Source: Enterobacteria phage mEp021 | Length of the DNA: 54,655 bases | Sequence record: MH706966 | Strand: one strand, 5' to 3' | Part shown: piece by piece, positions 2,418 through 20,423 of the stretch | How the letters are laid out: each line of letters begins with the position of its first letter | Numbering within the stretch: the first letter of the stretch is position 1 | Translations under genes and position numbers: made by a program | The notes under the pieces: generated by a model | What the model was told of the DNA's origin: nothing | The model's input: the letters and a program-made list of their open reading frames with translations, nothing else | The model's database searches: none

Positions 2418-2849
2418 TTATTGCCCCCAGCGTTTTATAAATTCCTCGTTCAACTTAGTGTCACCAGACCATTGAACATTATGTTCAGCGCCGAACGAGT
2501 AGATCAGTTCGATTAGTTCGCTAAATTCTGCTTTACTCATCCGGCTGGTTGACGTACCCAGCACAACAAAACCTGATTTATCCAGGTTAGGGACAACGCC
2601 ATATTTCTTAAGTCCGGCAGTAAATACCGCCTTCCAGTCTTCCGGCGACAGCTTTTTTCCGTACCAATTAACCTGATCGCTAATGTCGGTTAACAGCGCC
2701 CATAAAAGGCTATTTTGACTAAGCGAGCGGGTTTTCTCCTGGATGGTAATTATCAGCGGGCTTTTGCTATCAGACTGGATCTCTCTTATCTGCCTGATAG
2801 CGTTTTCTTTTACGGCGTCGTTTACTATTTCAAATCTAATTTGCCTCAT
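2418..2849 (-). CDS. ninB: NinB-like recombination protein
   Basis: 143 aa; resemblance to the lambda NinB (Orf) family as recalled; sits in a nin-like context next to a methyltransferase. Confidence 0.65.
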   Translation of the reverse strand: MRQIRFEIVNDAVKENAIRQIREIQSDSKSPLIITIQEKTRSLSQNSLLWALLTDISDQVNWYGKKLSPEDWKAVFTAGLKKYGVVPNLDKSGFVVLGTSTSRMSKAEFSELIELIYSFGAEHNVQWSGDTKLNEEFIKRWGQ

Positions 2850-3573
2850 GGTTAGATAACGCCTCGTTTATTCTATTTGATGCAATTTCGAAATATTTTT
2901 CATCCTTTTCTATGCCGATAAAACGTCGGTTAGTATTAATGCAGGCAACGCCTGTAGTTCCGCTGCCCATAGTAAAATCGAGAACCGTTTCCCCTTCGTT
3001 AGTGTATGTCTTAATTAGGTATTCCATCAGTGCGACAGGCTTTTGTGTTGGGTGTACCTTGCCTTTCTGGTTTGCGTTACTTATCTCTATAATGCTTTTA
3101 GGGTGCTTATCCTTATAAGTCCTTAAATCACCATAATTAATTATGCGGTTTGCCTCCCCAGCAGAATATGTTTTACCCGTCCTTTCCTTTTGCGGAGTTT
3201 TTATTGGGTAATATTTGACAGCGCCTTTAGAAAAAACAACAACATCCTCATGCACCCTATAAGGTTGCCATTTGAGGACTTGCATGTTACCGCCTTTCTT
3301 CTTGTCCCATACCCAGCAATATTTAAACATGCTTATGTTGCTTGCAATTAGTGTTGTAGTGAACGGCTGACTTGCAGTCATCACAATGGCGCAATTCGGC
3401 TTAACTATGCGCTTTAATTGCTCCCACATTGGATTAAGAGGAATGACGGAATCCCATTTGCAGGCCGTTGTGCCGTAAGGCGGATCAGCCATTACCATAT
3501 CAACGCTACCGCCTGGGATAGAGTTCATGACCTCCAGACAATCACCCAACAATAATGTAACATCTTTATTCAT
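2836..3573 (-). CDS. DNA methyltransferase, N6-adenine or N4-cytosine type
   Basis: 245 aa; DPPY catalytic motif (MADPPYGT) near the N-terminus and AdoMet motif FTMGSGTTGVA near the C-terminus (motif IV before motif I). Confidence 0.75.
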   Translation of the reverse strand: MNKDVTLLLGDCLEVMNSIPGGSVDMVMADPPYGTTACKWDSVIPLNPMWEQLKRIVKPNCAIVMTASQPFTTTLIASNISMFKYCWVWDKKKGGNMQVLKWQPYRVHEDVVVFSKGAVKYYPIKTPQKERTGKTYSAGEANRIINYGDLRTYKDKHPKSIIEISNANQKGKVHPTQKPVALMEYLIKTYTNEGETVLDFTMGSGTTGVACINTNRRFIGIEKDEKYFEIASNRINEALSNHEAN

Positions 3574-3582
3574 TATGTTGCC

Positions 3583-3780
3583 TCATGATACACCGTTACT
3601 ATTTTTCCACTGTGACCGCGCATACATGATCGCCCACAGAGAAATAAGCCTTGAGCTAGACATATAATCGTTTTTGAGTTTTTTCATATCAATAATAACA
3701 GGACTATCAGGATCGTCACCTCGCATGTATTCCGCAATCGTGCTCAAGTCTTCCACGGTCAAATCTAATTCCCTATTCAT
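3583..3780 (-). CDS. Hypothetical protein (65 aa)
   Basis: ORF in a tightly packed leftward operon. Confidence 0.35.
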   Translation of the reverse strand: MNRELDLTVEDLSTIAEYMRGDDPDSPVIIDMKKLKNDYMSSSRLISLWAIMYARSQWKNSNGVS

Positions 3781-3789
3781 GGTCGCCCC

Positions 3790-3996
3790 TTACACAATCC
3801 GCATTGTGTTTCGTAATTCACCGCGCAACGCCTGCAAAGCGTAATGAATCGGCACAAAAGCACGGTTAAATTTTACGTGCTTATACTTGCGCATTAGTGG
3901 CGGCGTATAAACCATCGTGCCGCAAGGATCGCATGTGAATTTAAAGTGAGATTCGTCAATAAACGTTTCAACTGAATAAAAAATTACCCGTCTCAT
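3790..3996 (-). CDS. Hypothetical protein (68 aa)
   Basis: ORF in a tightly packed leftward operon; overlaps the upstream gene by 4 nt. Confidence 0.35.
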   Translation of the reverse strand: MRRVIFYSVETFIDESHFKFTCDPCGTMVYTPPLMRKYKHVKFNRAFVPIHYALQALRGELRNTMRIV

Positions 3997-4586
3997 AATT
4001 CCAACCCCGTTTCCACGTTGAGTTTTTCAATCTCAAATACTGGTTTATCAGGAAGCAGCCCGTTATTTTTACGGTATTCGTTCAGGCGGCTGTCAAAGTC
4101 AAACGCCAAATCATTAGCGTGACCGAATCGCCCAGGTTTAAACAGTGAGTAAAAGTTAACCCCGTGCCTATTTGGATCAACGCAAAGCGTTTCATCAATC
4201 ACCATTAGGCGAAGAGTACGAGAAAGATAATTCCACGGGATACCAGTCTCCGCACTAATGTCACGCATACGCTTTTTAACGCTGTAGTCACCAAATAACG
4301 ACGCAACACGCTCACGACGTTCAGCATATAACTGTTTAATACGATAGCCCAGCAGACGGCGGCGGCGTCCAAAACATGTATATACGCGCTCGACGATACC
4401 GTTTTTTATTAAGTGTTTAATTGTCTCAGGAAGTAACCCATCTTTATCATATCCAGCTAATAACCCCGTTTTATTGCGCAACTGGTGCATTGTTGCGATG
4501 CCATCAAGTTCAAGGATATTGATAACTTTTGTTTCAAGTTCAGCGCTCATTGTTTTTAGCCTCGTTTTAAACGCGATAACAGCCAC
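3993..4586 (-). CDS. Hypothetical protein (197 aa) downstream of the helicase
   Basis: Long ORF; no Walker motif seen, so not called as a helicase loader. Confidence 0.5.
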   Translation of the reverse strand: MAVIAFKTRLKTMSAELETKVINILELDGIATMHQLRNKTGLLAGYDKDGLLPETIKHLIKNGIVERVYTCFGRRRRLLGYRIKQLYAERRERVASLFGDYSVKKRMRDISAETGIPWNYLSRTLRLMVIDETLCVDPNRHGVNFYSLFKPGRFGHANDLAFDFDSRLNEYRKNNGLLPDKPVFEIEKLNVETGLEL

Positions 4587-4629
4587 CAGAAAGCGGTAAA
4601 CTTTCCGGTAAGCCGTTTGCTCATATTGA

Positions 4630-6045
4630 TTAAAAAGATGCGTTATTCTGGTTGTTTCGTTGGTTAAATCTGCCTGTGCGGTGATTCATAGACTGAATAC
4701 ACGCAGCAGCCGCGCGTGCCTGGTCGCATGGTAAAATGTTGCCGTTATCATCAAACCGCTGGTAAACAGTGCCAGATTTACCATGACGGTTTTTCGATAC
4801 AATGATTTCCATATATTCGCGGGCTACAGACTGCTCATCGTAATATCCATCGCGGTAAACCATGATGATCCTGTCAGCATCTTGTTCAAGGTTCCCGGAA
4901 TCGCGCAGATCTGAATTGTTAGGACGCTTGTTCGGTCGCTCCTCAACGCGGCGTGACAACTGCGCCAGCGCTAACACTGGAACGCGCAATTCTTTTGCCA
5001 TCATCTTCAACGACCATGACAATTGCCCAACAGCGAGATCATGACGTTCAGCCTTAGCCAGCTTCATCAACCCGATGTAGTCAATCATTACCATACCCAG
5101 GTTAGGATGTTCCTGTTTCATCCGTTCCGTGGTGGCGCGTATTTCCTCAACCGTTAACTGCGACGCGTCAACGATCCACACATCAAGATTAGCAAGTGCG
5201 CTCATACCCTTGCCGACATGCGCCCACCCCTCATCATCAAGTTTTACCGGATTACGCAGGCAGTCTGTTGATAAATTACCAGCGCCAGCTATAGCGCGTT
5301 CAGTCATCTGATCGAGTGACATTTCAAGCGTGAAGAACAAAACGCCAACCCGCTGATCTTTACTGCCAGGGTAAGGGCGCTCAGCGGCAGCGCGGGCAAT
5401 TGTCAGCGCCAACGCAGATTTACCAGACCCAGGGCGTCCAGCTAAAAGCACCAAATCAGTAGCGTTAATGCCTCCCAACATCTCATCGAGTGGATCTATC
5501 CCTGTTTTGATGTTGTCAGAATTAACACCGCATTCCATGCGCTTGCTTAAAACGTCCGTATATTCCTGTACCGCATCACGCAACAGAACAGGAATGATCT
5601 TATCTTTCGTTACCTTTAATTTTGAATACCGGGAATCAAAATCTTTCATCGTCTCTTTGACGACCTCAAGCGTCCCCGTCTCCAGTTTGTAGCGCATATC
5701 GTCGATGAGTTCCAACATCTGCCGCCGCTGGTGCTCTTCACGTAGTAGCTGTGCGTATCCCTTCAGGTTGGCAGCAGACGGGCACGATCTCGCCGTTTGC
5801 ATTAGCGGTACAAAGTTTTCGTTGCCAATCTCATCGCCAACCAATAACGCGTCAATAAGATTCCTGTTTCTGGCTTGCGCCCTGATAATTTCAAACGCAC
5901 GTTTATACAGCGGAATCGTGAACACTTCAGGATCAAGAGTGGCGAGAACATCTTGCGCGTTAGGAGTAAGGCCGCCCAACAGCAGCCCACCGATAACTGA
6001 CGCCTCACGTTCCTGCCGTAGTGAGTTTATTTGCTCAGTTACCAT
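4630..6045 (-). CDS. dnaB: Replicative DNA helicase, DnaB family
   Basis: 471 aa; Walker A GRPGSGKSALALTIA; DnaB-like N-terminal domain and overall pattern. Confidence 0.85.
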   Translation of the reverse strand: MVTEQINSLRQEREASVIGGLLLGGLTPNAQDVLATLDPEVFTIPLYKRAFEIIRAQARNRNLIDALLVGDEIGNENFVPLMQTARSCPSAANLKGYAQLLREEHQRRQMLELIDDMRYKLETGTLEVVKETMKDFDSRYSKLKVTKDKIIPVLLRDAVQEYTDVLSKRMECGVNSDNIKTGIDPLDEMLGGINATDLVLLAGRPGSGKSALALTIARAAAERPYPGSKDQRVGVLFFTLEMSLDQMTERAIAGAGNLSTDCLRNPVKLDDEGWAHVGKGMSALANLDVWIVDASQLTVEEIRATTERMKQEHPNLGMVMIDYIGLMKLAKAERHDLAVGQLSWSLKMMAKELRVPVLALAQLSRRVEERPNKRPNNSDLRDSGNLEQDADRIIMVYRDGYYDEQSVAREYMEIIVSKNRHGKSGTVYQRFDDNGNILPCDQARAAAACIQSMNHRTGRFNQRNNQNNASF

Positions 6046-6079
6046 TATGTTATTACCTCCGGTTTACAAAATGGAAAAT

Positions 6080-6586
6080 TCAGGGTAAAGAAATACCGTG
6101 ATTGCTATGAAAGTTATACATTCTTTCAGCTTCTTTTCTTGCTTTTACGGCATCATCAAATGAGTCACCGTAATAAACGTACATTGTTTTCTTTTTCCCA
6201 TCAGACCCCCTTATACCTATTTGCGCCCGCCATTTATGGGTTTTCTTGTTCCACGTAACGCCAACGCATCCGCTAGTATTACTTGATGGCATTGTTTTGT
6301 TTCTGTTATTCTCCTTCCTTGTCACTATCCTTAAGTTTTCGATTCTATCGTCACCAGGTACATGATTTATGTGATCTATTTCCATTCCATCAGGAATAGG
6401 GCCGTTAAACATTTCCCAGATAATGCGGTGACGCCATGTGCAACAAATACCATTAACGCGTATAGTCCAATATCCGCGATAATGTTTACATCCAGCCACG
6501 CTACCTGCTTTTATTTTGTTATTTGCACGGTTACAAGACCAATATAGAACGCCGTCGCTATATGTAAATAAATCATCCCACATCAT
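6080..6586 (-). CDS. HNH homing endonuclease with AP2-like domain
   Basis: EIDHINHVPGDDRIENLRIVTRKENNRNK HNH motif; start taken at the internal ATGATG (6586) that overlaps the stop of the upstream gene; paralog of 45958-46524. Confidence 0.65.
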   Translation of the reverse strand: MMWDDLFTYSDGVLYWSCNRANNKIKAGSVAGCKHYRGYWTIRVNGICCTWRHRIIWEMFNGPIPDGMEIDHINHVPGDDRIENLRIVTRKENNRNKTMPSSNTSGCVGVTWNKKTHKWRAQIGIRGSDGKKKTMYVYYGDSFDDAVKARKEAERMYNFHSNHGISLP

Positions 6587-7703
6587 GACACCCAACCATT
6601 TCAGGCCTATATACAAAGCGACCAATTTCGCCATAATCAGGGCTGTAAATGATAACCGCCGCGCAACGTTGCGATCTCCAGCCTCCATTAGTTGAATAAG
6701 CGTCTTTTCCCGCTAACGTGCCGTGGTGTTCAACTATGCCTATAGATGATTCTGTTACTGATTTATGGTGCAAATGTCCGACATGGACGTAAACATATTT
6801 CGACTTGCCAAAATCCTCACGCCAGTCAGCTACGCAAGCAGACAATAAATTTTCAGGCTTTTTGATAGTGTGCCCGTGGTGGTAAGCAAGGAATGTTTTT
6901 CCGTACTGTGTGTGGTGGACGATGGCAGGGGACACATCAACCGTCACGCGCGGTTCATCTTCGTAAAAAGCCGCCAGCGCCGCACGTAGCCAGATCATTC
7001 CTGACTGGTCGTGATTGCCGGATAACACCTGGATTTCAACATCCTTATGATTTAATAACATCTTCCCTACCGCCCGCCGGACAGACCGGATCGCTACATA
7101 AACAAGTTTTGCGTAGCGACTATCTTGATCAAGAATGTGCCCGCTTGTTGGTGTCACCGGGACCATACCGTCAGAATGAAGTAGATCGCCACCGAGGAGC
7201 AGTACTGCTTTTTCAGACATAGGAGCAGCGCCAACCGCGTAGTCAAAGAAGTCATTCAACACGCGCTCAGCGATCCCAGTATCGTAGCTCTCACCGCATT
7301 CAGCTTTATGAGCAAGTGCCCCGATATGCAGGTCAAACACCGGATAAAGAGCCAGGCTTTTTTGAAAATCAATTTCCGGCACTGGCACTGCCTCCGCGCG
7401 TGGTATTTCTTCCGTGAATGCGTCGCGGGCGGCTTCCATTAGCCTTTCCATTTCATCGCGATCACGGGCTGTTTTAATCCAGCGCATGACCGTATTACCA
7501 GCCTTATCGACAAGAACAGATTCACCAGTAACGCCAAAACCCGGTGCGCGGCGCGTTGATAATAAACCGCGTTTCGCCAGCTTTGCGCCAAGCCGCTCGA
7601 CGTTGCGTTTTGACATGCCATATTTTTCGGCGATCTGTTTATACGTTAAACCGTTGTTATATTCAGCGATCAATTGCTCATCGCTTATCTTTCTTTGCGA
7701 CAT
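6573..7703 (-). CDS. HTH domain fused to calcineurin-like metallophosphoesterase (Mre11/SbcD or lambda-PPase-like)
   Basis: 376 aa; N-terminal LTYKQIAEKYGMSKRNVERL HTH; phosphoesterase motifs LLGGDLLHSDG, LSGNHDQ, HHGH, HVGHLHH. Confidence 0.6.
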   Translation of the reverse strand: MSQRKISDEQLIAEYNNGLTYKQIAEKYGMSKRNVERLGAKLAKRGLLSTRRAPGFGVTGESVLVDKAGNTVMRWIKTARDRDEMERLMEAARDAFTEEIPRAEAVPVPEIDFQKSLALYPVFDLHIGALAHKAECGESYDTGIAERVLNDFFDYAVGAAPMSEKAVLLLGGDLLHSDGMVPVTPTSGHILDQDSRYAKLVYVAIRSVRRAVGKMLLNHKDVEIQVLSGNHDQSGMIWLRAALAAFYEDEPRVTVDVSPAIVHHTQYGKTFLAYHHGHTIKKPENLLSACVADWREDFGKSKYVYVHVGHLHHKSVTESSIGIVEHHGTLAGKDAYSTNGGWRSQRCAAVIIYSPDYGEIGRFVYRPEMVGCHDVG

Positions 7704-7736
7704 AATGTTACTTCCTCATGTTTACGTTTTGTATAT

Positions 7737-9224
7737 TCATTGGCAGAAAACAATCTCTTTAAATGCTTTTTCTACCATGTCGAATACTTCCGGCCTGTAA
7801 TAGAAAAACTCATTGCTTCCATCAAATTTCACAGGAAAATTGATTTTATAATTACTAAAAGCCTTATGCATCGTGTTTTCTAGTTTATGTATACTTTCGG
7901 TTGGCCCTTCTAACGTTTTCACGACACACAAATCAGGGATTCTAACACCTGCTTTATGTGCGCTTTTTAATATCCGATTTCTTCGCTCGTTCTCCTTAAC
8001 ACTTACGCCGATTTTCATTTGTGTAGGTAATTCCAGATCATCAACCATGATGTAAAGTTTGCCATAATCATAACGAAAGAAACCGTATTTAGCGCATTTT
8101 TGGCAACCCCTACCGCGCTTAAGTTCTCTAGGTCTAACCGACCACTTATGATTACAAACCTTACAGCGGCATGATACTTTTTTATTTACGTTCGTTATTT
8201 CTCCCAGCACTTCAACATCAGGATTAACCTTAGCAATAGCTAAAACATGTTCTTCGTGCGTTATAATCTTCCCAGCACATTTTGGGCAACCCTTCCCGCG
8301 TTTAAGGTTGCTAGGAGTAACCGACCACTTATGATTACAAACCTTACAGCGGCATGATACTTTTTTATCTACGTTCGTTATTTCTCCCAGCACTTCAACA
8401 TCAGGATTAACCTTAGCAATAGCTAAAACATGTTCTTCGTGCGTTATAATCTTCCCAGCACATTTTGGGCAACCCTTACCGCGCTTAAGGTGGTTAGGTC
8501 TAACTGACCATTCATGATCACAAACCTTGCAGCGGCATAATACTTTTTTGTCGCCACCTGTAATTTCACCCAGCACTTCAACATCAGGATTAACCTTCGC
8601 AATGGCAGCAATTTGTTTATAATGTGATAGTCTTAGTTTTTGTGCAATTTTCACACATTTACATTTCGGGCAACCGCTCCCGTGTTTAAGGGCGTCAGGC
8701 GTAGCCGACCATACACGATCACAAATCTTGCAGCGGCATAATACTTTTGTTCTGCTATTAACAATTTTCCCCAGCACTTCAACATCAGGATTAATTCTTG
8801 AGATGGCGGCGATCTGTTCTTCGTGTGATAATCTTTTTGGCCCTTGCTTTAACATTGCGCATTTCGGGCAACCATTCCCGCGTTTAAGGTTGCTAGGAGT
8901 AACCGACCACTCATGATCACAAACCTTGCAGCGGCATAATACTTTTGTGCTGTTATTTATTATTTCCCCCAACACTTCAACATCAGGATTAATTTTAGCA
9001 ATAGCCGCAATTTGTTCTTCGTGGGATAGCCTTGCGTTCCCAGCGCATTTTGGGCAACCTTTACCGTGTTTAAGGTTGCTAGGAGTAACCGACCATTCAT
9101 GATCACAAACCTTGCAGCGGCATAATACTTTTTCCCGGCTTCCAGTAATTTCTCCCATCACTTCAACATCAGGATTAACTTTCGCAATAGCTGCAACCTG
9201 TTCTTCGTGTGTTAGCTTGCACAT
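7737..9224 (-). CDS. Protein with six tandem Zn-ribbon modules and a C-terminal GIY-YIG-like (T5orf172-type) domain
   Basis: 495 aa; six ~55-aa repeats HEEQVAAIAKVNPDVEVLGEI...C.C..C.H.W...P..L..G.GCPKC; C-terminal GKLYIMVDD...KIGVS...RRNRIL pattern; repeats 5 and 6 are near-identical at DNA level. Confidence 0.55.
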   Translation of the reverse strand: MCKLTHEEQVAAIAKVNPDVEVMGEITGSREKVLCRCKVCDHEWSVTPSNLKHGKGCPKCAGNARLSHEEQIAAIAKINPDVEVLGEIINNSTKVLCRCKVCDHEWSVTPSNLKRGNGCPKCAMLKQGPKRLSHEEQIAAISRINPDVEVLGKIVNSRTKVLCRCKICDRVWSATPDALKHGSGCPKCKCVKIAQKLRLSHYKQIAAIAKVNPDVEVLGEITGGDKKVLCRCKVCDHEWSVRPNHLKRGKGCPKCAGKIITHEEHVLAIAKVNPDVEVLGEITNVDKKVSCRCKVCNHKWSVTPSNLKRGKGCPKCAGKIITHEEHVLAIAKVNPDVEVLGEITNVNKKVSCRCKVCNHKWSVRPRELKRGRGCQKCAKYGFFRYDYGKLYIMVDDLELPTQMKIGVSVKENERRNRILKSAHKAGVRIPDLCVVKTLEGPTESIHKLENTMHKAFSNYKINFPVKFDGSNEFFYYRPEVFDMVEKAFKEIVFCQ

Positions 9225-9365
9225 CGTTTCAACTCCTTAAAACGCCTCAGACACTCTACAACGCAAAAACACACCGCGTAATCCACTTGTAATGGTGCAG
9301 TGTCTTTTTTGCGCCAGAATCGCAATCAGGTGGCTAATTTTTTGATTTACAGACTGGTATGAAGG

Positions 9366-9467
9366 TTATGGATTTACTAGAAGGAACAAGCCGCCGAACA
9401 AAGCGACGTTAACAGCGATTGCAGCGGCGATGGCAAAAGCCAGGGCGAAAACGTGTTTACCGTCCAT
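9366..9467 (-). CDS. Small hydrophobic peptide (33 aa, single predicted TM helix)
   Basis: MDGKHVFALAFAIAAAIAVNVALFGGLFLLVNP; SD agagagga upstream; below the ORF-track cut-off. Confidence 0.35.
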   Translation of the reverse strand: MDGKHVFALAFAIAAAIAVNVALFGGLFLLVNP

Positions 9468-9600
9468 TTTAAAATCCTCTCTAAAACGCTCTCTAACGAG
9501 CTAAACCGCTAAAGGTATGCAAGTGTAGCACCCAATGCTTTTTAGCTCGCTTATGGGCTTGTTTTGTTGGTAATTTTTGATTTTTGCGTATTGTGGTTGG

Positions 9601-10608
9601 TCAAATAGCGCCTGCGCGTGTATCGCGTAGCGTTTTTGGTTTAAGCAGGAAATCAAGTGTCGCAGTGAAGCCATTGCCGAAGTAAAAGTCTGAAGCCGTG
9701 TTTTTAAACGCCTCAAAGTAAGCAATAAAGCCAGTGATGCTTTTGTCTTTCAGGTAGTCAGTGAACGCATAGATCTTGCGTTCAAGATCCCGATCCAGTT
9801 CAGCAGGTGGCAACAGGCCATCAAACGTGCTGTTAAATGCTTCCACTACGTCGGCAGCGTTTGCAGTGACTGACAGTTTGCTCCATTGTTCAGCATCAGC
9901 CAGATACCCATCGAATTTAGTTACCCGGCAAATGTTAACAGGCTTAGGCACTCCACCACGGCCACGCCATTGCGTTAAAGCCCACTCAATCACTAATGTG
10001 ATCTCACCCTCCGTATACGCTTTGCGTGTTTTTGTTTCTGTCAGTAGTTCTACGAATGGCTTTGCATCACGACATTTGCATCCTGCCTTGTCGTTGTAGA
10101 AGGACAGGCAACGCAATGCCGCCAGATTAACCTCCCGATCTTCTTCGCTGATAGACTCGTCTTTTTCCAATACACGAAGTGTATTGTTTTTAATGTTCTC
10201 TTTACTGGTTATATATGACTGATTAGGGTTGCTCTCTGCCACTACCCCCGGTTGCTTTGTGCCACTACCCTGGTTGCTCTCTGCCACTACCCCCGGTTGC
10301 TTTGTGCCACTACCTGACAGTGAAGGTAAAACGATTACATAGAAATTGCTCGTTTGTTCTTTCCCTCCTATTAAATATCGAGGCTGTTTTAGTAATAAAC
10401 CTTTTTTGCAAAGAGCCTCGATTGCTCTCATTGCCGTACTTTTGTTTATTTCGCATTGCTTTGCTATGTGCTGGTAAGAAGGGTAGCACTCTCCGTTATC
10501 GTTAGCGTTATCAGCCAACTTTAACAGCACAAGTTTGTGCATTGGGTTGCCGACTTCAGTATGAAAGACTTCAACCATTAGCCGCATACTCATAAGCATT
10601 AACCTCAT
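9601..10608 (-). CDS. Replication initiator, phage O-like
   Basis: N-terminal winged-HTH pattern KLVLLKLADNANDNGECYPSYQHIAKQCEINKSTAMRAIEALCKKGLL; iterons embedded in the coding sequence; true start probably the internal ATG at 10593 with a gaggt SD. Confidence 0.7.
   Translation of the reverse strand: MRLMLMSMRLMVEVFHTEVGNPMHKLVLLKLADNANDNGECYPSYQHIAKQCEINKSTAMRAIEALCKKGLLLKQPRYLIGGKEQTSNFYVIVLPSLSGSGTKQPGVVAESNQGSGTKQPGVVAESNPNQSYITSKENIKNNTLRVLEKDESISEEDREVNLAALRCLSFYNDKAGCKCRDAKPFVELLTETKTRKAYTEGEITLVIEWALTQWRGRGGVPKPVNICRVTKFDGYLADAEQWSKLSVTANAADVVEAFNSTFDGLLPPAELDRDLERKIYAFTDYLKDKSITGFIAYFEAFKNTASDFYFGNGFTATLDFLLKPKTLRDTRAGAI
10227..10314. repeat. Four tandem ~22-bp iterons (ggttgctYtSTgccactaccc), candidate replication origin
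   Basis: Direct repeats at 10227-10249, 10250-10271, 10272-10294, 10295-10314, inside the O-like gene (encoding SGTKQPGVVAESN twice). Confidence 0.6.
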
Positions 10609-10614
10609 GACGAA

Positions 10615-11814: not shown

Positions 11815-11818
11815 ACAT

Positions 11819-12261: not shown

Positions 12262-12317
12262 AATTAACGAAGATGATTTTTTATTAAGTATCATCAAGGA
12301 TATAAGGAGATCAGATC

Positions 12318-12608: not shown

Positions 12609-12638
12609 TACAAAATGTAAATAATCGGAGGTGACATT

Positions 12639-12761: not shown

Positions 12762-13399
12762 AAACAGAGTTACACAAAAAGCTGTGGACGATTCAACAAA
12801 CGTTGAATGCGCCGAAAAATCAGCGTAATAATTTCGGTGGGTACAATTACAGGTCGGCGGAGGATATTTTAGAGGCGGTTAAGCCACTGCTTCAAAATAT
12901 CACGCTGACTGTTAGCGATGAAATCGTCCTGATCGGCAATCGCTATTATGTGAAGGCCACAGCTACGCTAAGCGACGGTGAAGATGAAATTGCGGTAACT
13001 GCTTACGCCAGGGAAGAAGAAAGCAAGAAGGGAATGGACGCAAGCCAGTTAACTGGCGCGACATCAAGTTATGCGCGGAAATACGCGTTGAACGGATTGT
13101 TCTGTATTGATGATGCGCGAGATCCTGATACTGACGCATACGCGAAGCAGACTGGCCAGCAGCCTCGCCAGCAGAAAAACACACCAAAACAACAACCACA
13201 GCAGCAGAAAGCGCCGCCAAATCCTGACGAGGTGTTAGCGCGTTTCTGTGATGCAGCAGCGAAAGCGCCTGACGCTAACAAGTTGCGCGAGATATTCGGG
13301 AAGTGCTGGAAGCTACTTCCTAAAGATTCAGAACAGCAACAGAAAGCTAAAGACGTTTATGATATTCGCTTAAAAGAGCTTAACGGGGAGATCGGTTAA
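12758..13399 (+). CDS. erf: Erf-family single-strand annealing protein
   Basis: 213 aa; N-terminus LNAPKNQRNNFGGYNYRSAEDILEAVKPLL resembles P22 Erf as recalled; GTG start with SD gaaggaga. Confidence 0.75.
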   Translation: MKTELHKKLWTIQQTLNAPKNQRNNFGGYNYRSAEDILEAVKPLLQNITLTVSDEIVLIGNRYYVKATATLSDGEDEIAVTAYAREEESKKGMDASQLTGATSSYARKYALNGLFCIDDARDPDTDAYAKQTGQQPRQQKNTPKQQPQQQKAPPNPDEVLARFCDAAAKAPDANKLREIFGKCWKLLPKDSEQQQKAKDVYDIRLKELNGEIG

Positions 13400-13809
13400 T
13401 GAGCTTAAATTCAATTACGCTTGGCGGTAACGTTGGGAATGATTGCGAAACGAGATTTACATCAAACGGGAAAGCAATCGGTAGTTTCTCACTTGCTGTA
13501 CAACAAGGTTACGGTGATAACAAACGTGCAATGTGGGTAACGTGTTTAATATTAGGTGATAGAGCAACAAAATTAGCCGAACATATTAGGAAGGGGGATC
13601 ACCTGGTTGTAAGTGGTCGGTTGGATGTTAGGGATTGGGAAGGGCAGGACGGAAGAAAAAACAAATCAGTTGAGGTTATCGTGTCAGATATTGAATTTAT
13701 GAGCGGAAATAAACGCAGCGACCAAAACCAAAACAGACAACGCGAACAGCAACAACAATATAACCAGGATAACGGCGGGCAGGACTGCGACCAAGATATC
13801 CCATTTTAG
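13399..13809 (+). CDS. ssb: Single-stranded DNA-binding protein
   Basis: 136 aa; OB-fold pattern, glutamine-rich linker and C-terminal acidic tail ending DIPF. Confidence 0.85.
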   Translation: MSLNSITLGGNVGNDCETRFTSNGKAIGSFSLAVQQGYGDNKRAMWVTCLILGDRATKLAEHIRKGDHLVVSGRLDVRDWEGQDGRKNKSVEVIVSDIEFMSGNKRSDQNQNRQREQQQQYNQDNGGQDCDQDIPF

Positions 13810-13838
13810 CGAATATAATCAATTAGTTAGGTGTTATT

Positions 13839-14363
13839 ATGAGTAATGCCGAACCATTGAAAATATGTTGTACTTGCGGGGCACTATTGCCCCTTTCTTG
13901 TTTTCATAACGATAAGGGCAAGAAAGACGGCAAATCATGTAGATGTAAAGAGTGCGCCAAAAAAGCCACTAGAGAATGGAGTGAAGCGAATAAAGAAAGA
14001 AAAAAGAAAAATGATAGCGAATACGCAAAAACAGATAAAGCCAAAAAGAAAAGGGAAGAATACAGAAAATCGCAAAGAGGTAAAGAGATCGCGGCTGAAT
14101 CAAGAAAAAAATGGAATGAGAAAAACCCTAAAAAATACCACGCCCAAGTGATGGCACATAACGCTATCCGCGACGGCAAATTAATTAAACAACCTTGCGA
14201 AGTATGCGGCAGAGATGACCGCGTACACGCGCACCATTGCGATTATGATAAGCCGCTCGATGTTATGTGGCTTTGCCCGATATGCCATCGAGAGTGGCAC
14301 AACGAACACGGTGAAGGAGCTAATGCACACGACGAGGTATTAAGTGGTGAGCGAATATCTTAA
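13839..14363 (+). CDS. Zinc-binding protein with HNH-like C-terminal motif and lysine-rich centre
   Basis: 174 aa; CCTCG...C.C.EC then HAHHCDYDKPLDVMWLCPICHREWH. Confidence 0.5.
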   Translation: MSNAEPLKICCTCGALLPLSCFHNDKGKKDGKSCRCKECAKKATREWSEANKERKKKNDSEYAKTDKAKKKREEYRKSQRGKEIAAESRKKWNEKNPKKYHAQVMAHNAIRDGKLIKQPCEVCGRDDRVHAHHCDYDKPLDVMWLCPICHREWHNEHGEGANAHDEVLSGERIS

Positions 14364-14628
14364 AGCACCGCCACCGCCACCGCGAACAAAAGAACAAGTA
14401 TTAAAAGAAGCCCGTGATCATATCGATCATGGGCTTTTTTTATGCGGAACGGCGGCGGATCGAATGGCGAAAAGATTTAGTGACCTGTACGCAAAACAAA
14501 TATGGTTCGACAACTGGCAGGCAAGTTTTTACCCACTGCAAAGAAAACCGGATATGCATTGGCCTGAATATGTCGATCCACGTATGCGCAAATATCGCGG
14601 GCGTATGGGCCAGGTTATTAACGATTAA
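14344..14628 (+). CDS. Hypothetical protein (94 aa)
   Basis: ORF in the rightward early operon. Confidence 0.4.
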   Translation: MVSEYLKAPPPPPRTKEQVLKEARDHIDHGLFLCGTAADRMAKRFSDLYAKQIWFDNWQASFYPLQRKPDMHWPEYVDPRMRKYRGRMGQVIND

Positions 14629-14642
14629 TGAGGTATTAAATC

Positions 14643-14867
14643 ATGATCGAAGATAAAGAAGTTGACGTAGAAATTCCTGACAGCGCTGATGAGCTTATCA
14701 CTTTCGGCGGCGGCCTGTATGAGTTCGATACATCGGCTGGGTGGGTTGATAAGTGGCCTCAGCCTACTCGCCAGGAATTAATTAACCGCAAATCATTCGG
14801 CGAAGATGCAGAACGCCTTGCTAATAACAAGTGGCTTAACAAGTTCATTGCGGAGGGTGATAAATGA
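14643..14867 (+). CDS. Hypothetical acidic protein (74 aa)
   Basis: ORF with SD; D/E-rich. Confidence 0.45.
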   Translation: MIEDKEVDVEIPDSADELITFGGGLYEFDTSAGWVDKWPQPTRQELINRKSFGEDAERLANNKWLNKFIAEGDK

Positions 14868-14977
14868 ACCTTGCAAAAATTGCCGCATTGCTTGCGGCTT
14901 TGTCTATCGCTGTGCTGTATCTCAGCGTATCGCTTTATATAACGGTAGCGATCATTAAACTCATTGCTAACATGTGA
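14864..14977 (+). CDS. Small membrane peptide (37 aa)
   Basis: MNLAKIAALLAALSIAVLYLSVSLYITVAIIKLIANM; ATGA overlap with the upstream stop; SD ggaggg. Confidence 0.45.
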   Translation: MNLAKIAALLAALSIAVLYLSVSLYITVAIIKLIANM

Positions 14978-14985
14978 GGTTAATC

Positions 14986-15105
14986 ATGAAAGTCGGTAAG
15001 GATATTGTGACGGTCGCGTTTTGCATTATTTGCTTCCTATTTGTGGTTGTGTTTTGTGGCGGATTTGCAGCGCTGGTTAGCTTTATTTTCAGGGGATTGT
15101 TGTGA
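14986..15105 (+). CDS. Small membrane peptide (39 aa)
   Basis: MKVGKDIVTVAFCIICFLFVVVFCGGFAALVSFIFRGLL; SD tgaggt; overlaps the next gene start. Confidence 0.45.
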   Translation: MKVGKDIVTVAFCIICFLFVVVFCGGFAALVSFIFRGLL

Positions 15106-15377
15106 TGAAAACATGGGATGCAAAGACTGGTGATCTTGTTGTATTGCCTGAATATCGTGATGACCCTGGCCTGGTTGTACTGAATAAGATGTATAACGAT
15201 CTAGATCGCCCGCTAGTGGTTAAATACCTGGACGGAACAATCATAGAACCGCGCTACTTTGATGATATTGAACTGAAGGCCCGCAACGTTCGCGTTAAGC
15301 CGTTCCGGGCTTATGTTGAGGACCACTGGCGGAAATTGTTCGCCGGACTGAATGGGATGTACGGCGTATGGCTATAA
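15102..15377 (+). CDS. Hypothetical protein (91 aa)
   Basis: ORF in a tightly packed operon. Confidence 0.45.
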   Translation: MMKTWDAKTGDLVVLPEYRDDPGLVVLNKMYNDLDRPLVVKYLDGTIIEPRYFDDIELKARNVRVKPFRAYVEDHWRKLFAGLNGMYGVWL

Positions 15378-15559
15378 AGGAAGTAAAGGTCAAAGACCTG
15401 AAAGGCGGTGAGCGATTAAAGGCGTGGTGGGGTCGCGAGTTTACAGCCGCTGCCTTCATGATCATGCAGGGCGGGGAGGTCGTTATATACGATGAAGACC
15501 TGAAGGAAGTCGGCAGGTGGCATCTTGAGCAATATATCGAGGTGTTAGATGAAAATTAA
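15368..15559 (+). CDS. Hypothetical protein (63 aa)
   Basis: ORF in a tightly packed operon. Confidence 0.4.
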   Translation: MAIKEVKVKDLKGGERLKAWWGREFTAAAFMIMQGGEVVIYDEDLKEVGRWHLEQYIEVLDEN

Positions 15560-15881
15560 ATTCCATAAAGGTTATGATTCGGTCACTAACAAGTTATCGC
15601 TATTTATTGAGTTCGAGCGCCGGATCGTGGTTGTTCCTTATTCTCGGCGCTTTAATGATGCGGCAGGGCGGCGGCAATTCGCGTTAGACATGTTGTTACG
15701 TGGCTGCGGCCTTATGCGCCCGCTATCTGATTTGAAACGGATGATGCCGGGATCGTTCGGTCAGATTGATGAAATAGAAATAAGCCCGGAAGAACTGAAG
15801 CGGGAGCGTGATTTATTCCTTTCAAGCGAAGGAAACCCGTTTAATTCAGAAACAGAAATGAAATGGCATCACCCACTATAA
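15549..15881 (+). CDS. Hypothetical protein (110 aa)
   Basis: ORF in a tightly packed operon. Confidence 0.45.
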   Translation: MKIKFHKGYDSVTNKLSLFIEFERRIVVVPYSRRFNDAAGRRQFALDMLLRGCGLMRPLSDLKRMMPGSFGQIDEIEISPEELKRERDLFLSSEGNPFNSETEMKWHHPL

Positions 15882-15894
15882 AAGGATAAATATC

Positions 15895-16515
15895 ATGAAC
15901 GACATTAAAACAGCTTATTCACTAGGCAGCGATGGCATGTTAATCACTCGCTACACTGAAGACGCAAGTTTTCATGAAGTGGAAACGAAGGATTATCACG
16001 AAGTATTAAAAGATATGGAAGCTGGCGCGTATGACGCAGATTTGAATCTGGCTTTACAGATTGTTGATATTATGATGGACGCGTCGATCCGCGATTATGT
16101 GTCTTTAAACGCTGAAGAAAAAACGGCTGTGGCTCGTTATGTCTTCTGCCTAACTTTCGTGAAACGAATGGAAGAGGAATATGGGCGCGTGCCAGTGCCG
16201 GAAGAAATTGACCCGCTGGCGTTCGGAAGCGCTGTTATTTTCCCGTTAGATGAAAATCATACTGGTAGCGTTGCGCTGCATTCTATGCGCGGCGTAATGA
16301 AATGCATCTTTGAGGCTAAAGCGCTACAGAAGTGCATTGATGAAGGGCATGACGAAGAAGACGTAAAAGCGATCATGCCGTTGTTTTATGGCGAAATGGT
16401 TGGGAACAACATGCGCGCAAATGATTTAGGTGTGCAGGCTGCCATAACTGTACTTAACGAAGCGCGGAAAATGTCGCAGCCAATGCCGGAACCTGAAAAA
16501 CGTGTACTGCATTAA
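15895..16515 (+). CDS. Hypothetical acidic protein (206 aa)
   Basis: Long ORF with SD; markedly D/E-rich. Confidence 0.5.
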   Translation: MNDIKTAYSLGSDGMLITRYTEDASFHEVETKDYHEVLKDMEAGAYDADLNLALQIVDIMMDASIRDYVSLNAEEKTAVARYVFCLTFVKRMEEEYGRVPVPEEIDPLAFGSAVIFPLDENHTGSVALHSMRGVMKCIFEAKALQKCIDEGHDEEDVKAIMPLFYGEMVGNNMRANDLGVQAAITVLNEARKMSQPMPEPEKRVLH

Positions 16516-16614
16516 CATCGTGATTGCGATCACATAAATATACATTTTGTGTTGTGATCGCATATCCGTTTTGTAAACTGAAATCAAAAGGTTTACGGCA
16601 CGGAGGAAAACAAG

Positions 16615-16833
16615 ATGGCAAGCGAATTAATGCTTTATTGTGTTGAAGGTGGCGTGGGACATGATGCCTACGTCGCCGGGAAAAGCTATCCAGCAGATGA
16701 AGTGCTTTCTAATATGCACTTCCGGGAAAATGAAAACCAGGTGTCTGTGTGGAAGCGATGCGTTGATGGCATTGAGGTAGTTAGCCTCGAAAGATATTTG
16801 GGTAAATTTGACTACGCATTGATCGAGGCTTAA
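16615..16833 (+). CDS. Hypothetical protein (72 aa)
   Basis: SD cggagg upstream. Confidence 0.45.
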   Translation: MASELMLYCVEGGVGHDAYVAGKSYPADEVLSNMHFRENENQVSVWKRCVDGIEVVSLERYLGKFDYALIEA

Positions 16834-16931
16834 CTATGGACGAAACATTGCTATTCATGTGCATTTGCTGGGGTTTTATTGCCTTATGCCTGTTTATCAG
16901 GTGGTTTATTGAATACCATATGAGGTGATAT

Positions 16932-17126
16932 ATGGAACAGAAAACTGATTATAGAATACCTGACAACCTGAAGTTAGTTGGCATTGGTTTTGGTTGTCGT
17001 TTTGTATCTGACGCAAACGGGGCGATTTATTTAGTGCGCATCATTGATGGCGTTCAACATATAAGAAGGCTAGGACTTTACATCAAAGCATTTAGAAGAG
17101 GTTATTTGAAAACTCATGAAATTTAA
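16932..17126 (+). CDS. Hypothetical protein (64 aa)
   Basis: ORF with SD gaggtga. Confidence 0.4.
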   Translation: MEQKTDYRIPDNLKLVGIGFGCRFVSDANGAIYLVRIIDGVQHIRRLGLYIKAFRRGYLKTHEI

Positions 17127-17319
17127 ACAGTATAAAGAATGGAAGATTCCAGAAGAAGCGACAAAGGCAGCGCCCGGAATTTTTTCGGGCGTTTATTTTT
17201 ATATGGGCGGTAAATGGTATTTCGGCAGCAGGCCGGATCACTATTATCAAGAATTATGCAAATCTCACACATGGGACATTAATGAACGCGTGCAAGGCGG
17301 TGTAATAGACGAGGTTTAA
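17116..17319 (+). CDS. Hypothetical protein (67 aa)
   Basis: ORF overlapping its neighbours by a few nt. Confidence 0.4.
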   Translation: MKFKQYKEWKIPEEATKAAPGIFSGVYFYMGGKWYFGSRPDHYYQELCKSHTWDINERVQGGVIDEV

Positions 17320-17320
17320 A

Positions 17321-17557
17321 ATGATTAATGGTTTTTTAAGCTGGTTAAGAGTGTGGTTTTTTGCCACGCTTTTCGTTTTTTTGGCGTTCAGCGGTGTCAT
17401 TGTCATATTTACGCTGGCGATGATGTTCATTACATGGTCAGTACCTGAATTTAACAATCTTGGAAGTATTTTTGCTGTCGCCCGCGCCATGTTTGCTTGT
17501 AGCGCATTTGTTGGTTTTTGTTGGAGTGTTTCGCCTGATTGGGATGATGAATGGTGA
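17321..17557 (+). CDS. Small membrane protein (78 aa, two predicted TM helices)
   Basis: Hydrophobic segments FFATLFVFLAFSGVIVIFTLAMMFI and FACSAFVGFCW. Confidence 0.45.
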   Translation: MINGFLSWLRVWFFATLFVFLAFSGVIVIFTLAMMFITWSVPEFNNLGSIFAVARAMFACSAFVGFCWSVSPDWDDEW

Positions 17558-17561
17558 TCCT

Positions 17562-17795
17562 ATGGCCTTGTTCAATATGTCAGAACTGCAATTCAACGCC
17601 GTAAAAGCTGCCGCCCGCGCTGCACTTTCTGCTTGCAAAGCGGAGGTAGAGAAAAACGGCTACAGCGATAAAGCCACGCGGCTGATATTAGAAAAGCATT
17701 ATCGCAAGGTCGCCCCACTAATCAGCATTGAGCGCTTTGTGTGGTTGGTGGGGTATTTAAACAACCGTTGGGGGACGGAACAAGATTATTTCTAA
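17562..17795 (+). CDS. Hypothetical protein (77 aa)
   Basis: Internal ATG start chosen to avoid overlap with the upstream membrane-protein ORF. Confidence 0.4.
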   Translation: MALFNMSELQFNAVKAAARAALSACKAEVEKNGYSDKATRLILEKHYRKVAPLISIERFVWLVGYLNNRWGTEQDYF

Positions 17796-17804
17796 GGGGG
17801 CGTA

Positions 17805-18344
17805 ATGAAAAATGATTTTGGAGGCAGCCACACTCCTAAGGAAATTAAAGATCTATGGCAGACGCCTAAACCAGTTTTCAGAGGAATGGACCGCGAATTT
17901 GAATTTGTCGCTGACGTGGCGGCAAACAAGGAAAATGCGCTAGTTCCTCGGTATATAACCGAAGAAATGGACACGTTGCATTATCCGTGGGGAGCTGTGG
18001 CAATGCCTGGTGAGTATGTCTGGCTTAATCCGCCATATTCTAAACCGGGGCCATTCGTTGAGAAGGCGGCATTAGAACATCAACGAAATCACATTGGCTG
18101 TGTAATGCTGTTGCCCGCTGACATTTCTGTTAGCTGGTTTATGAACGGCGTGGATACGGCAAACGAATGCCGATTAATCACGCGCGGGCGGCTGGCGTTT
18201 ATCAATGCTGCGACTGGTAAGCCAGTAAGCGGAAACAATAAAGGGAGCTTGTTTTTGATCTGGCATCCACGGTGCAGACATGAATGTATTTTTACACACA
18301 TAACACGTAAAGAGCTATACGCAAGAGGTGCAGATAATGACTAG
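17805..18344 (+). CDS. dam: Phage-type DNA N6-adenine methyltransferase (Dam-like)
   Basis: 179 aa; WQTPKPVF...DVAANKENALVPRYIT...WLNPPYS pattern of the phage Dam family; SD aaggggg. Confidence 0.75.
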   Translation: MKNDFGGSHTPKEIKDLWQTPKPVFRGMDREFEFVADVAANKENALVPRYITEEMDTLHYPWGAVAMPGEYVWLNPPYSKPGPFVEKAALEHQRNHIGCVMLLPADISVSWFMNGVDTANECRLITRGRLAFINAATGKPVSGNNKGSLFLIWHPRCRHECIFTHITRKELYARGADND

Positions 18345-18834
18345 TGCAGCAGATTTACTACGAATCGCAGCGGAAACAATTGAGCAAAGAGGTAAACAAA
18401 ACGGCTACGACAGAAAAGAGGAAAAATCAGCGCCAAAAATAGCCACTATATACAACGCTAAGAAGGGCGCAAATTTAACCCCACTTGATGTATGGGATCT
18501 GATGATTTGTCTTAAGGAGGCGCGTTTAGAGGCTATTTTGGTTAATGGCAGCGATCCCACTGACACTTTGGTTGACCTAATCAGCTACAGCGCACTAAAA
18601 GCTGAGCAAATATTGAATGATCTGGATGAAGAGTTAAAGAAAAATCAGTTCACTGCCGCCAATATTAATGATGGAATAATAAATGACGCAGCAATAACAA
18701 GCTGTAAGGGATTGCCGCCTTCAATGCTTAAACCTCAGTGTGGCTGTATTTCAAATCGGCTTGATTTGAGTTTTGACAGATCTGAAGCTATTCGCGACAA
18801 GAGGTATGACCCAAATGAAAAAGGTGACAATTGA
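18337..18834 (+). CDS. Hypothetical protein (about 165 aa)
   Basis: ORF with SD aagagg; no motif recognised. Confidence 0.45.
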   Translation: MTSAADLLRIAAETIEQRGKQNGYDRKEEKSAPKIATIYNAKKGANLTPLDVWDLMICLKEARLEAILVNGSDPTDTLVDLISYSALKAEQILNDLDEELKKNQFTAANINDGIINDAAITSCKGLPPSMLKPQCGCISNRLDLSFDRSEAIRDKRYDPNEKGDN

Positions 18835-19318
18835 CAGGTTATTGGCCTGCGTTTATGTCGCCGTTTTCGTGATCATCAACCTAATTGTTAACCATTGCGG
18901 CCCGTGGGTGATTCCTATCACTACGGTAGCCGCTGTGTGTGTCAATATGATGATCCGCGACTTCCTGTTATATGACGGCGGTATCAAGTGGTCGGCGACA
19001 ACATGCGCCGCCGCTGGCGCAATCACTGTGCTGATAAATTACGACGCCGGAATGGTAGCGATCGCGTCATTTGTTGCGGTTGTTTCCGGTGCACTTATTT
19101 CTGGCGGCGTTTACCGGGTTTTACCTGGTGACTTTGATTCAAAACGATGGCCTGCAAATATAGCGTCAGCAATAGGCGATGCGTTGATTTTCCCTACGCT
19201 ATCGTTTATGGCATTCATGCCGGAAATATCAGCAATGCAATTCATATCCAAAATGGCGGCGGTAACGGTGATCACTATCATCATGCGCCGCTATTTTACG
19301 TTTGAGGGTAGAAAATGA
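18806..19318 (+). CDS. Multi-pass membrane protein (possibly VUT/YhhQ-like transporter; start uncertain)
   Basis: Four or five hydrophobic segments; loose resemblance to YhhQ-type proteins from memory only. Confidence 0.4.
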   Translation: MTQMKKVTIDRLLACVYVAVFVIINLIVNHCGPWVIPITTVAAVCVNMMIRDFLLYDGGIKWSATTCAAAGAITVLINYDAGMVAIASFVAVVSGALISGGVYRVLPGDFDSKRWPANIASAIGDALIFPTLSFMAFMPEISAMQFISKMAAVTVITIIMRRYFTFEGRK

Positions 19319-20073
19319 GCAGGGGTAAACATTGGTTTAATAATTGGCTTAGAAATTGGGTCGTTTGGTCGTTGTACGACGGCAGCGGGTACGCCGTCAA
19401 AGATTGGGCGGAAGCAGGATATAAGTGCTATTGCTTCAACTATGACGGCGCAAATCACGGCGATTATGAAGGCGTTAAAATCATTCATCCAAATATTGAA
19501 TACGTTAACGTATGGATTGACAGTCACTTCCTGGTGATGTTCTCGCCTGAACTGTCAGTTTACCCAGATCCTGATATTATCCTGGGCTTCCCGCCGTGCG
19601 ACGATCTCGCCGTGTCTGGCGCTCGCTGGTTCGCTGATAAACGGAAAAAAGATCCTGACTTCCAGGTGAAGGCGGCGAATAGCGCAAAACTGGTAGAAAA
19701 ACTGGCGGATATGCACAACGTGCCGTGGATGGTGGAAAATCCGGTGGGAGCACTGTCAACGCTATGGCGCAAACCTGATTTTATTTTCAACCCTTGCGCT
19801 TACGGTGGCTACCTGCCGGAAGACGACAAACATCCTGCTTTCCCTGATGTTTACCCTGCGCGCGACGCGTATACAAAGAAAACTTGCATATGGTGCGGCA
19901 ACGGATTCAAACAGCCGCTTTTTAGACCTGTAGATCTTAACTCTGGCGATAACCCTGGGTGGGCGAAAACAGGAGGCAGGACGAAACGAACAAAGATGAT
20001 ACGCTCACTAACTCCGCGCGGCTTTGCCCGTGCTGTATTCATGGCTAACCATGACCGCGTTTTACCGGACTGA
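19315..20073 (+). CDS. Small DNA C5-cytosine methyltransferase-like protein
   Basis: 252 aa; LYDGSGY (motif I-like), GFPPCDDLAVSG (PC motif, with PCD rather than PCQ), MVENPVG (ENV motif). Confidence 0.45.
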   Translation: MSRGKHWFNNWLRNWVVWSLYDGSGYAVKDWAEAGYKCYCFNYDGANHGDYEGVKIIHPNIEYVNVWIDSHFLVMFSPELSVYPDPDIILGFPPCDDLAVSGARWFADKRKKDPDFQVKAANSAKLVEKLADMHNVPWMVENPVGALSTLWRKPDFIFNPCAYGGYLPEDDKHPAFPDVYPARDAYTKKTCIWCGNGFKQPLFRPVDLNSGDNPGWAKTGGRTKRTKMIRSLTPRGFARAVFMANHDRVLPD

Positions 20074-20409: not shown

Positions 20410-20423
20410 TCGGGGTGATTTTT

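Follow-up and report, generated by a model that had tools for sequence, protein, structure and literature searches.

Solitary methyltransferases are a textbook form of phage counter-defence. Within the phage Dam family, the enzymes of Stx-phage/VT-2, T1 and HP1 act at GATC. In the beta class of amino-methyltransferases, the target-recognition region lies between the catalytic motif and the end of the protein that binds S-adenosylmethionine (AdoMet). For compact C5-cytosine enzymes, experimental data come from phage KarlJaspers: mutants of its strain K42 that escape retron Ec86 map to a 711-bp "Dcm-like" gene, whose expressed product triggers the retron and raises 5-methylcytosine (5mC) in the retron's multicopy single-stranded DNA (msDNA), as determined by liquid chromatography–mass spectrometry (bioRxiv 10.1101/2023.08.16.553469). 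The C82A/E128A/K175A/K176A mutant is inactive and forms no 5mC on msDNA, and K175 and K176 were assigned to substrate binding by structural superposition (bioRxiv 10.1101/2023.08.16.553469). Enterobacteria phage mEp021 is a temperate, Nus-dependent, non-lambdoid coliphage; its record MH706966 was deposited in 2018, and it was described together with five sister phages in 2025 (PMC11893012). The window analysed here is the whole 54,655-nucleotide stretch of this record, and the subject is its three DNA methyltransferase genes, which probably allow the replicating phage DNA to be methylated by three solitary enzymes and thereby to evade restriction in the next host.

The original prediction, made from the letters alone, had described three methyltransferase genes of different classes in one prophage. 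The three open reading frames (ORFs) are all found in the ORF listing, and the three classes hold, by a PF01555 match, a PF05869/TIGR01712 match, and C5 motifs together with the fold, respectively. The genes do sit in one genome, which is the complete genome of a temperate phage and not a prophage.

2836-3573, minus strand: beta-class N6-adenine/N4-cytosine DNA methyltransferase, 245 amino acids (aa), PF01555; accessory in the phage group.
17805-18344, plus strand: phage Dam-family N6-adenine DNA methyltransferase, 179 aa, PF05869 and TIGR01712; an orphan methyltransferase in PADLOC and "dam" in JQ072023.
19315-20073, plus strand: compact Dcm-like C5-cytosine DNA methyltransferase, 252 aa, assigned by phrog_757, invariant motifs and fold.

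The genome thus holds exactly two amino-methyltransferases and one C5 enzyme. A regular-expression search of all long ORFs returned no further (D/N/S)PP(Y/F/W) motif in a real gene beyond the two known genes, the remaining matches being antisense noise. As a discovery none of this is new, since all three genes were previously annotated by the depositors in mEp021 records. The protein identical to the beta-class enzyme was deposited for mEp021 as "putative DNA methyltransferase N-4/N-6", a 1,450-bp mEp021 GenBank fragment with "dam" (JQ072023) is 100% identical to MH706966, and "DNA cytosine methyltransferase" was named among the conserved genes of the mEp021 group (PMC11893012). Homologues occur in 1,517 (C5), 1,878 (Dam) and 1,644 (beta-class) phage records.

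Among the three enzymes, only the C5 methyltransferase is closely backed by experiment, through its KarlJaspers homologue. The experiments were performed with the K42 enzyme, and the protein compared here is that of KarlJaspers (Bas06, QXV82308), the two strains being 95% related. This protein is 63% identical to the mEp021 enzyme over 232 aa, and its C82, E128, K175 and K176 align exactly with C95, E141, K188 and K189 of mEp021. The mEp021 protein matches phrog_757 ("DNA methyltransferase") with E 8e-87 and belongs to a family of more than 7,700 database proteins. Of the C5 motifs that the original prediction proposed to check, motif I (LYDGSG, aa 20-25; G23, S24 and G25), motif IV (GFPPCDD; P93, P94 and C95) and motif VI (VENPVG; E141, N142 and P143) were found in an alignment of 26 diverse homologues, with the listed residues invariant. 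The catalytic cysteine context, named beforehand as the point at which the C5 call could fail, is therefore present (FPPC, C95). A Lys-Lys-Thr-Cys-x-Trp segment, with K188 invariant and K189 at least 90% conserved, would place Lys188-Lys189 where motif VIII usually has the arginines (RxR) that contact the target cytosine, and a C-terminal SLTPRGFA helix is conserved as well.

Weak matches to PF00145 are obtained for 12 of the 26 homologues (best E 1.3e-06). Searched against the PDB, the family profile matches only DNMT3B and M.HaeIII; the matches are weak (E about 0.2), and motif I through the catalytic Pro-Cys is aligned. The AlphaFold model has a mean predicted local distance difference test score (pLDDT) of 86.7, and its top 50 Foldseek matches in the PDB are all DNMT3A, DNMT3B, DNMT3C or DNMT1, with E down to 2e-06 and template-modelling (TM) scores of 0.41-0.54. 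Sequence-profile and fold matches alike therefore fall exclusively among DNA C5 methyltransferases, and this speaks against the view that the 252-aa protein is not a general DNA cytosine methyltransferase at all. Given the very small target-recognition region, it might instead be inactive or act on RNA or on single-stranded or hairpin DNA. Such a view can draw on the missing PF00145 match of the protein itself, the low TM-scores to DNMT3 (about 0.45-0.54), the Lys-Lys pair in place of the motif VIII arginines, and the fact that the activity of the homologue was published on retron msDNA, not on phage genomic DNA (bioRxiv 10.1101/2023.08.16.553469). However, none of the 26 homologues departs from motif I, from the cysteine of PPC or from the glutamate of ENP, and formation of 5mC by the 63%-identical protein depended on the aligned catalytic residues; the view is quite improbable. 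The original prediction had ranked the C5 call as the weakest of the three, which is true by Pfam, where PF00145 was missed. In other respects this ranking no longer applies, because motifs, fold and a 5mC-forming homologue now back the class, and the assignment, based on sequence and model, is well supported. The Dcm-like enzyme would form 5mC with Cys95 as the nucleophile and with Glu141 and Lys188/189 in the active site, at a site that is possibly CCWGG-like, by analogy.

The Dam-family protein matches PF05869 over profile positions 1-166 of 169 (E 5.5e-52, 176.3 bits, cutoff 28.1) and scores 142.9 bits against TIGR01712 phage_N6A_met (cutoff 97.05). Its catalytic NPPY is located at aa 75-78, within WLNPPYS (aa 73-79). 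As in the characterised relatives, the enzyme probably makes N6-methyladenine (m6A) at GATC; there is no solved structure within the phage Dam family. Both the Dam and the Dcm-like genes are present in all seven sequenced genomes of the group and in one more distant relative, and over positions 17000-21500 mEp515 and mEp021 are 99.6% identical.

The beta-class protein aligns with nearly the whole of PF01555 N6_N4_Mtase (profile positions 1-220 of 221, E 4.8e-36, 125.2 bits, cutoff 26.7) and matches the PADLOC MTase_II model with E 1.4e-79; against the NCBIfam equivalog models, every score is far below the cutoff. ADPPYG at about aa 29-34 (motif IV) comes before DFTMGSGTTG at about aa 199-208 (motif I), which is the permuted beta order, and both ends of the protein align to the solved enzymes CcrM, M1.HpyAVI, M.RsrI and M.MboIIA. 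The DPPY motif and the best solved matches point to m6A, and the C-terminus is also matched by N4-cytosine enzymes. On this sequence evidence the enzyme would make m6A, with N4-methylcytosine (m4C) the less likely product.

In contrast to the other two genes, which are core genes of the group, the beta-class gene is a mobile one-gene cassette. Among 5,426 complete E. coli genomes, 37 contain related prophages, and all 37 of these matching prophages, like the four other mEp phages and MagusPhagus, lack about 740 bp at the beta-class site. Alignment with mEp554 reveals a precise insertion between a 65-aa ORF and NinB, which abut directly in mEp554. The features of the insertion are as follows.

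2418-2849, minus strand: NinB/Orf recombination mediator (PF05772, E 1.5e-46), immediately downstream of the beta-class gene and overlapping it.
2841-2850, no strand assigned: right copy of the 10-bp direct repeat TTGCCTCATG, at the cassette junction and overlapping the start of NinB (minus strand).
3061-3441, minus strand: central non-aligning segment of the beta-class gene (about aa 45-171), with DNA flanks 99% and 96% identical to mEp515.
3578-3587, no strand assigned: left copy of TTGCCTCATG, bounding the methyltransferase cassette of about 737 bp.

Within the repeat lies the region where ribosomes bind and translation of the following gene starts; mEp554 has the repeat only once. NinB marks a fixed insertion point: two metagenome-derived prophages of the mEp021 group carry beta-class copies that are 91-93% identical at the same spot beside it. 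The allele of mEp515 at this site encodes a protein that is 56% identical to that of mEp021 overall and nearly identical over aa 171-245. Because segment 3061-3441 has the catalytic DPPY motif on one side and the AdoMet-binding C-terminus on the other, it is probably the target-recognition part. This central part has been exchanged by recombination between mEp021 and mEp515, and judging from these sequences the two alleles probably recognise different sites. More speculatively, the cassette may switch its target specificity by such intragenic recombination between mEp021-type and mEp515-type alleles. The mEp515 allele (mEp515 2838-3569) carries a catalytic DLPY in place of DPPY, so that its full activity is in question. 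The nearest phage homologues of the beta-class protein (about 60% identity) belong to phages of Aeromonas, Pseudoalteromonas, Flavobacterium, Vibrio and Enterococcus; given such different hosts, the gene has spread widely by horizontal transfer.

For all three enzymes, the absence of a cognate restriction endonuclease, as originally predicted, was confirmed. Family scans with Pfam, PHROGs, NCBIfam and PADLOC, covering neighbouring and unannotated ORFs, found no restriction-enzyme gene beside the methyltransferases. No nuclease adjoins any of the three genes, whose neighbours are NinB, small ORFs, a MarR-like protein, the DUF6378 and VUT-like proteins discussed below, and NinG; the C5 gene is followed by NinG, RusA and a Q-like antiterminator. 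PADLOC yields only methyltransferase and homing-endonuclease models. The beta-class insertion consists of exactly one gene, and it brought no partner gene with it, because the flanks are contiguous in relatives without the cassette. These observations support the classification of the three enzymes as solitary (orphan) methyltransferases. A Pfam search of mEp021 found no Lar-type restriction alleviation gene, which one relative has after the Q gene.

The genome does encode nucleases elsewhere, including NinG, RusA and the following.

6080-6688, minus strand: HNH homing-type endonuclease (HNH_3 and AP2), between the exonuclease and DnaB helicase genes; a mobile insertion, since one related prophage contig has it and another does not.
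7737-9224, minus strand: 495-aa protein with five DUF4379 treble-clef zinc fingers, CapR-homology repeats and a C-terminal T5orf172/MUG113 (GIY-YIG-like) domain.
13839-14363, plus strand: 174-aa endonuclease VII-like protein (PHROG "endonuclease", no Pfam match, a faint Lar-like match), encoded in the recombination module after Erf and the single-stranded DNA-binding protein (SSB).

The presence of these three nuclease-like genes, together with ORFs lacking any family match (for example 1574-2227 and 15895-16515), leaves room for the idea that one or more of the methyltransferases is paired with an unrecognised nuclease in a cryptic restriction-modification or toxin-antitoxin system, with the 495-aa zinc-finger/T5orf172 protein or unannotated ORFs as candidates. 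Their positions and distribution make such a pairing very improbable. No candidate adjoins a methyltransferase, and the nucleases match homing-endonuclease or recombination families. The replication-operon segment with the 495-aa ORF is missing from mEp515, which keeps a methyltransferase. Conversely, the 217-aa ORF 1574-2227 is kept in phages without the beta-class enzyme, whose single-gene cassette leaves its flanks unchanged where it is lacking. Two short ORFs in the moron cluster of the tail region, 40127-40600 and 40985-41461 (both minus strand), contain the same domain types as the 495-aa protein. A 314-aa DUF6453 protein (E 1.6e-104; 51741-52685, minus strand) is read from the other strand, its gene separating the long tail-fibre gene from the last fibre gene, which contains Peptidase_S74.

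The original proposal was of orphan methylases used for protection against host restriction or for regulation. Their solitary status is borne out by the absence of a partner nuclease; the choice between protection and regulation is a matter of inference. The methyltransferase genes overlap or abut their neighbours, and no convincing promoter of its own was found in front of any of the three. Two hairpins precede the dam gene.

17169-17193, plus strand: strong intrinsic-terminator-like hairpin upstream of the dam block; terminator T4 of mEp515 is annotated at the equivalent place.
17347-17373, plus strand: second strong intrinsic-terminator-like hairpin, like the first within the rightward early operon and a short way ahead of the dam block.

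Both early operons need the N-like antiterminator Gp17, acting at nutL, nutR1 and nutR2 (PMC11893012). With terminators in front of the dam block, antitermination is therefore needed to reach the Dam and C5 genes. Placement in early operons under N-like antitermination means that expression is expected in lytic growth and not in the lysogen. Consequently, a comparison of methylomes between the lysogen and a cured strain might show nothing, because all three genes belong to antitermination-dependent early operons. The ORF just upstream of dam (17460-17795, plus strand) corresponds to "ORF4" of JQ072023, which is annotated there as encoding peptides toxic to E. coli; these include Ipe, linked to a haemolytic phenotype.

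The timing of expression bears directly on the possibility that the methyltransferases are mainly epigenetic regulators, which would time replication, packaging or gene expression, or reprogram transcription in the lysogen. This alternative, already raised in the original prediction, appeals to the retention of Dam and the Dcm-like enzyme as core genes across the group although E. coli has both Dam and Dcm. The Dam of phage P1, which controls packaging, offers a precedent. However, three genes inside early lytic operons, behind terminators and without promoters of their own, are unlikely to be expressed in the lysogen, the beta-class gene is dispensable in most relatives, and the strong avoidance of palindromes shows the genome to be under real pressure from restriction. 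A mainly regulatory role is thus unlikely.

The palindrome avoidance is pronounced. Twelve of the 64 6-bp palindromes are absent from the mEp021 genome, including AAGCTT, CCGCGG, CCATGG and GGGCCC, compared with 0.35% of the non-palindromic hexamers, and the median count per hexamer is 4.5 for palindromes and 12 for the others. GATC (observed-to-expected ratio, O/E, 1.01) and CCWGG (0.88) are not depleted; GGCC (0.66), GANTC (0.74) and ATGCAT (0.36) are. This pattern fits passive site avoidance combined with methylation of a few frequent sites, GATC and CCWGG being protected. The target-site depletion analysis, suggested earlier as a check, revealed the avoidance of palindromes and the sparing of GATC and CCWGG, but site statistics cannot assign specificities to the enzymes, and the recognition site of the beta-class enzyme was not revealed by it. 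The depletion of GANTC and ATGCAT, which are not spared, counts weakly against a CcrM-like or YhhdJ-like specificity of the beta-class enzyme and proves nothing.

Taken together, the most probable course of events is self-methylation for anti-restriction. The three methyltransferases would be made from the two early operons during lytic growth; by methylating the phage genome as it replicates, they would make progeny DNA resistant to restriction in the next host. The sequences establish the three genes with their families and catalytic motifs, the lack of a partner nuclease, and the cassette and operon arrangement; it is inferred that the enzymes are active in mEp021, which sequences they recognise, and that they were selected for anti-restriction. 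Several points weigh against it. Since Dam, and usually Dcm as well, is present in E. coli hosts anyway, it is not clear what the phage gains, unless it grows at times in dam- or dcm- hosts or replicates faster than the host can methylate its DNA. Outside the mEp021 group, no phage Dam exceeds 44% identity to that of mEp021, which makes GATC an extrapolation. The C5 protein itself reaches no match in Pfam, NCBIfam or PADLOC, PF00145 being absent even at E up to 1, and non-depletion of 4- and 5-mers is weak evidence. Finally, CCWGG was assumed for the KarlJaspers enzyme from the host Dcm and was tested only by mutation of a site in the msDNA hairpin (bioRxiv 10.1101/2023.08.16.553469).

The Dam and C5 genes enclose two further genes, which agree with the earlier description of a 165-aa gene and a multi-pass membrane protein between them.

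18337-18834, plus strand: DUF6378 protein, 165 aa (PF19905, E 1.9e-08), with a start that overlaps the end of dam.
18806-19318, plus strand: six-helix membrane protein, a divergent VUT/COG1738 (YhhQ) relative (phrog_4899, E 1.7e-46), overlapping both neighbours.

The four genes of 17805-20073 overlap one another and are therefore probably translated as a unit. The DUF6378 domain lies within the N-terminal 90 residues of its protein, and the version in a distant relative is only 99 aa long (3209-3508 of its contig). A PDB sequence search gave no informative match for it, and no functional literature on DUF6378 was found. The match of the membrane protein to Vut_1 (PF02592) covers profile positions 6-149 of 152 with E 0.29 and 11.9 bits (cutoff 27.2). 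An exhaustive search collected 143 remote homologues, and 47 of 50 sampled match PF02592 (best E 1.3e-13). The AlphaFold model (pLDDT 94.1) consists of six long helices, and its nearest PDB folds are S-components of energy-coupling factor (ECF) transporters such as RibU, a weak similarity (E about 0.5, TM about 0.5). By its sequence, the protein is a divergent YhhQ/VUT relative and not a certified Vut_1 member.

YhhQ is a transporter of queuosine precursors. One may ask whether the dam-DUF6378-YhhQ/VUT-like-dcm block forms one functional module for nucleic-acid modification and not a row of four independent early genes; the transporter could, for instance, import a queuosine-precursor-like base or cofactor precursor which, along with the DUF6378 protein, would feed a DNA or tRNA modification that acts beside the two methyltransferases, in a phage without DpdA. 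This idea is highly speculative and improbable. A more distant relative shares the whole block, with 54-67% protein identity and the same NinG-RusA-Q synteny. The block is not found around the Dcm-like gene of KarlJaspers, nor around the VUT-like genes of unrelated phages. A recurrent link between VUT-like and methyltransferase genes in unrelated phages was considered and rejected, as the full block was seen only in the NinG-RusA-Q relative, a case of shared descent and not of independent association. One metagenomic phage has a PF01555 gene two ORFs downstream of its VUT-like gene, and a sibling contig lacks that gene; on a 128-kb contig with a VUT-like gene no methyltransferase was found nearby, and two further contigs are too short to judge. 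A 7-deazaguanine pathway as the reason for the YhhQ-like gene was likewise rejected: no match to tRNA-guanine transglycosylase (TGT)/DpdA, Que-family or preQ0-synthesis proteins was obtained in the ORFs scanned, some small ORFs being unscanned. That phages encode YhhQ homologues with no consistent partner pathway has already been reported (Hutinet et al. 2019, PMC6884629).

In terms of significance, the mEpimmI phages gain a defined anti-restriction gene set, composed of two core enzymes and one swappable cassette. Such a set may come at a cost known from homologues, since retron-based defences can be set off by the activity of a phage Dcm or Dam (bioRxiv 10.1101/2023.08.16.553469). These temperate gut coliphages are therefore predicted to be potential targets of retrons that sense these phage enzymes at work, one example being Ec86 of E. 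coli B strains. The mosaic beta-class alleles of mEp021 and mEp515 constitute a natural pair for mapping the segment that sets specificity. All the families are well known. Only the mosaic structure of the cassette and the presence of a YhhQ-like gene within the methyltransferase block deserve further work.

Comparison with the closest known systems shows where each protein conforms and where it departs. The membrane protein resembles YhhQ/COG1738 transporters in its six transmembrane helices, in a weak Vut_1 alignment over the full length, and in remote homologues that are clear Vut_1 members; it differs from E. coli YhhQ in being shorter and in its own sub-threshold Pfam score. The Dam-family protein shares with the enzymes of Stx-phage/VT-2, T1 and HP1 a full-length family match, small size (179 aa), the NPPY motif, solitary status and a location in an early, nin-like region, and yet its identity is only about 42% to Stx-phage Dam and 36-38% to T1-like phage Dam, so that its specificity is not secured. 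The beta-class enzyme is a small single-domain protein with an N-terminal DPPY and a C-terminal AdoMet region, as are the type II amino-methyltransferases CcrM, M1.HpyAVI, M.RsrI and M.MboIIA; in contrast to these, its central 125 residues have no counterpart in the solved enzymes, and its gene is carried as a phage cassette without a partner endonuclease.

The closest parallel is that between the mEp021 C5 enzyme and the Dcm-like protein of KarlJaspers, a member of the Drexlerviridae. The two fall in the same size class (252 and 236 aa), both are encoded by solitary phage genes, and DNMT3A is the best structural match for each. The mEp021 protein differs by a 15-aa N-terminal extension and by its temperate phage host. 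Whereas the KarlJaspers gene sits beside a helicase gene, that of mEp021 is placed inside the dam-DUF6378-VUT-dcm block.

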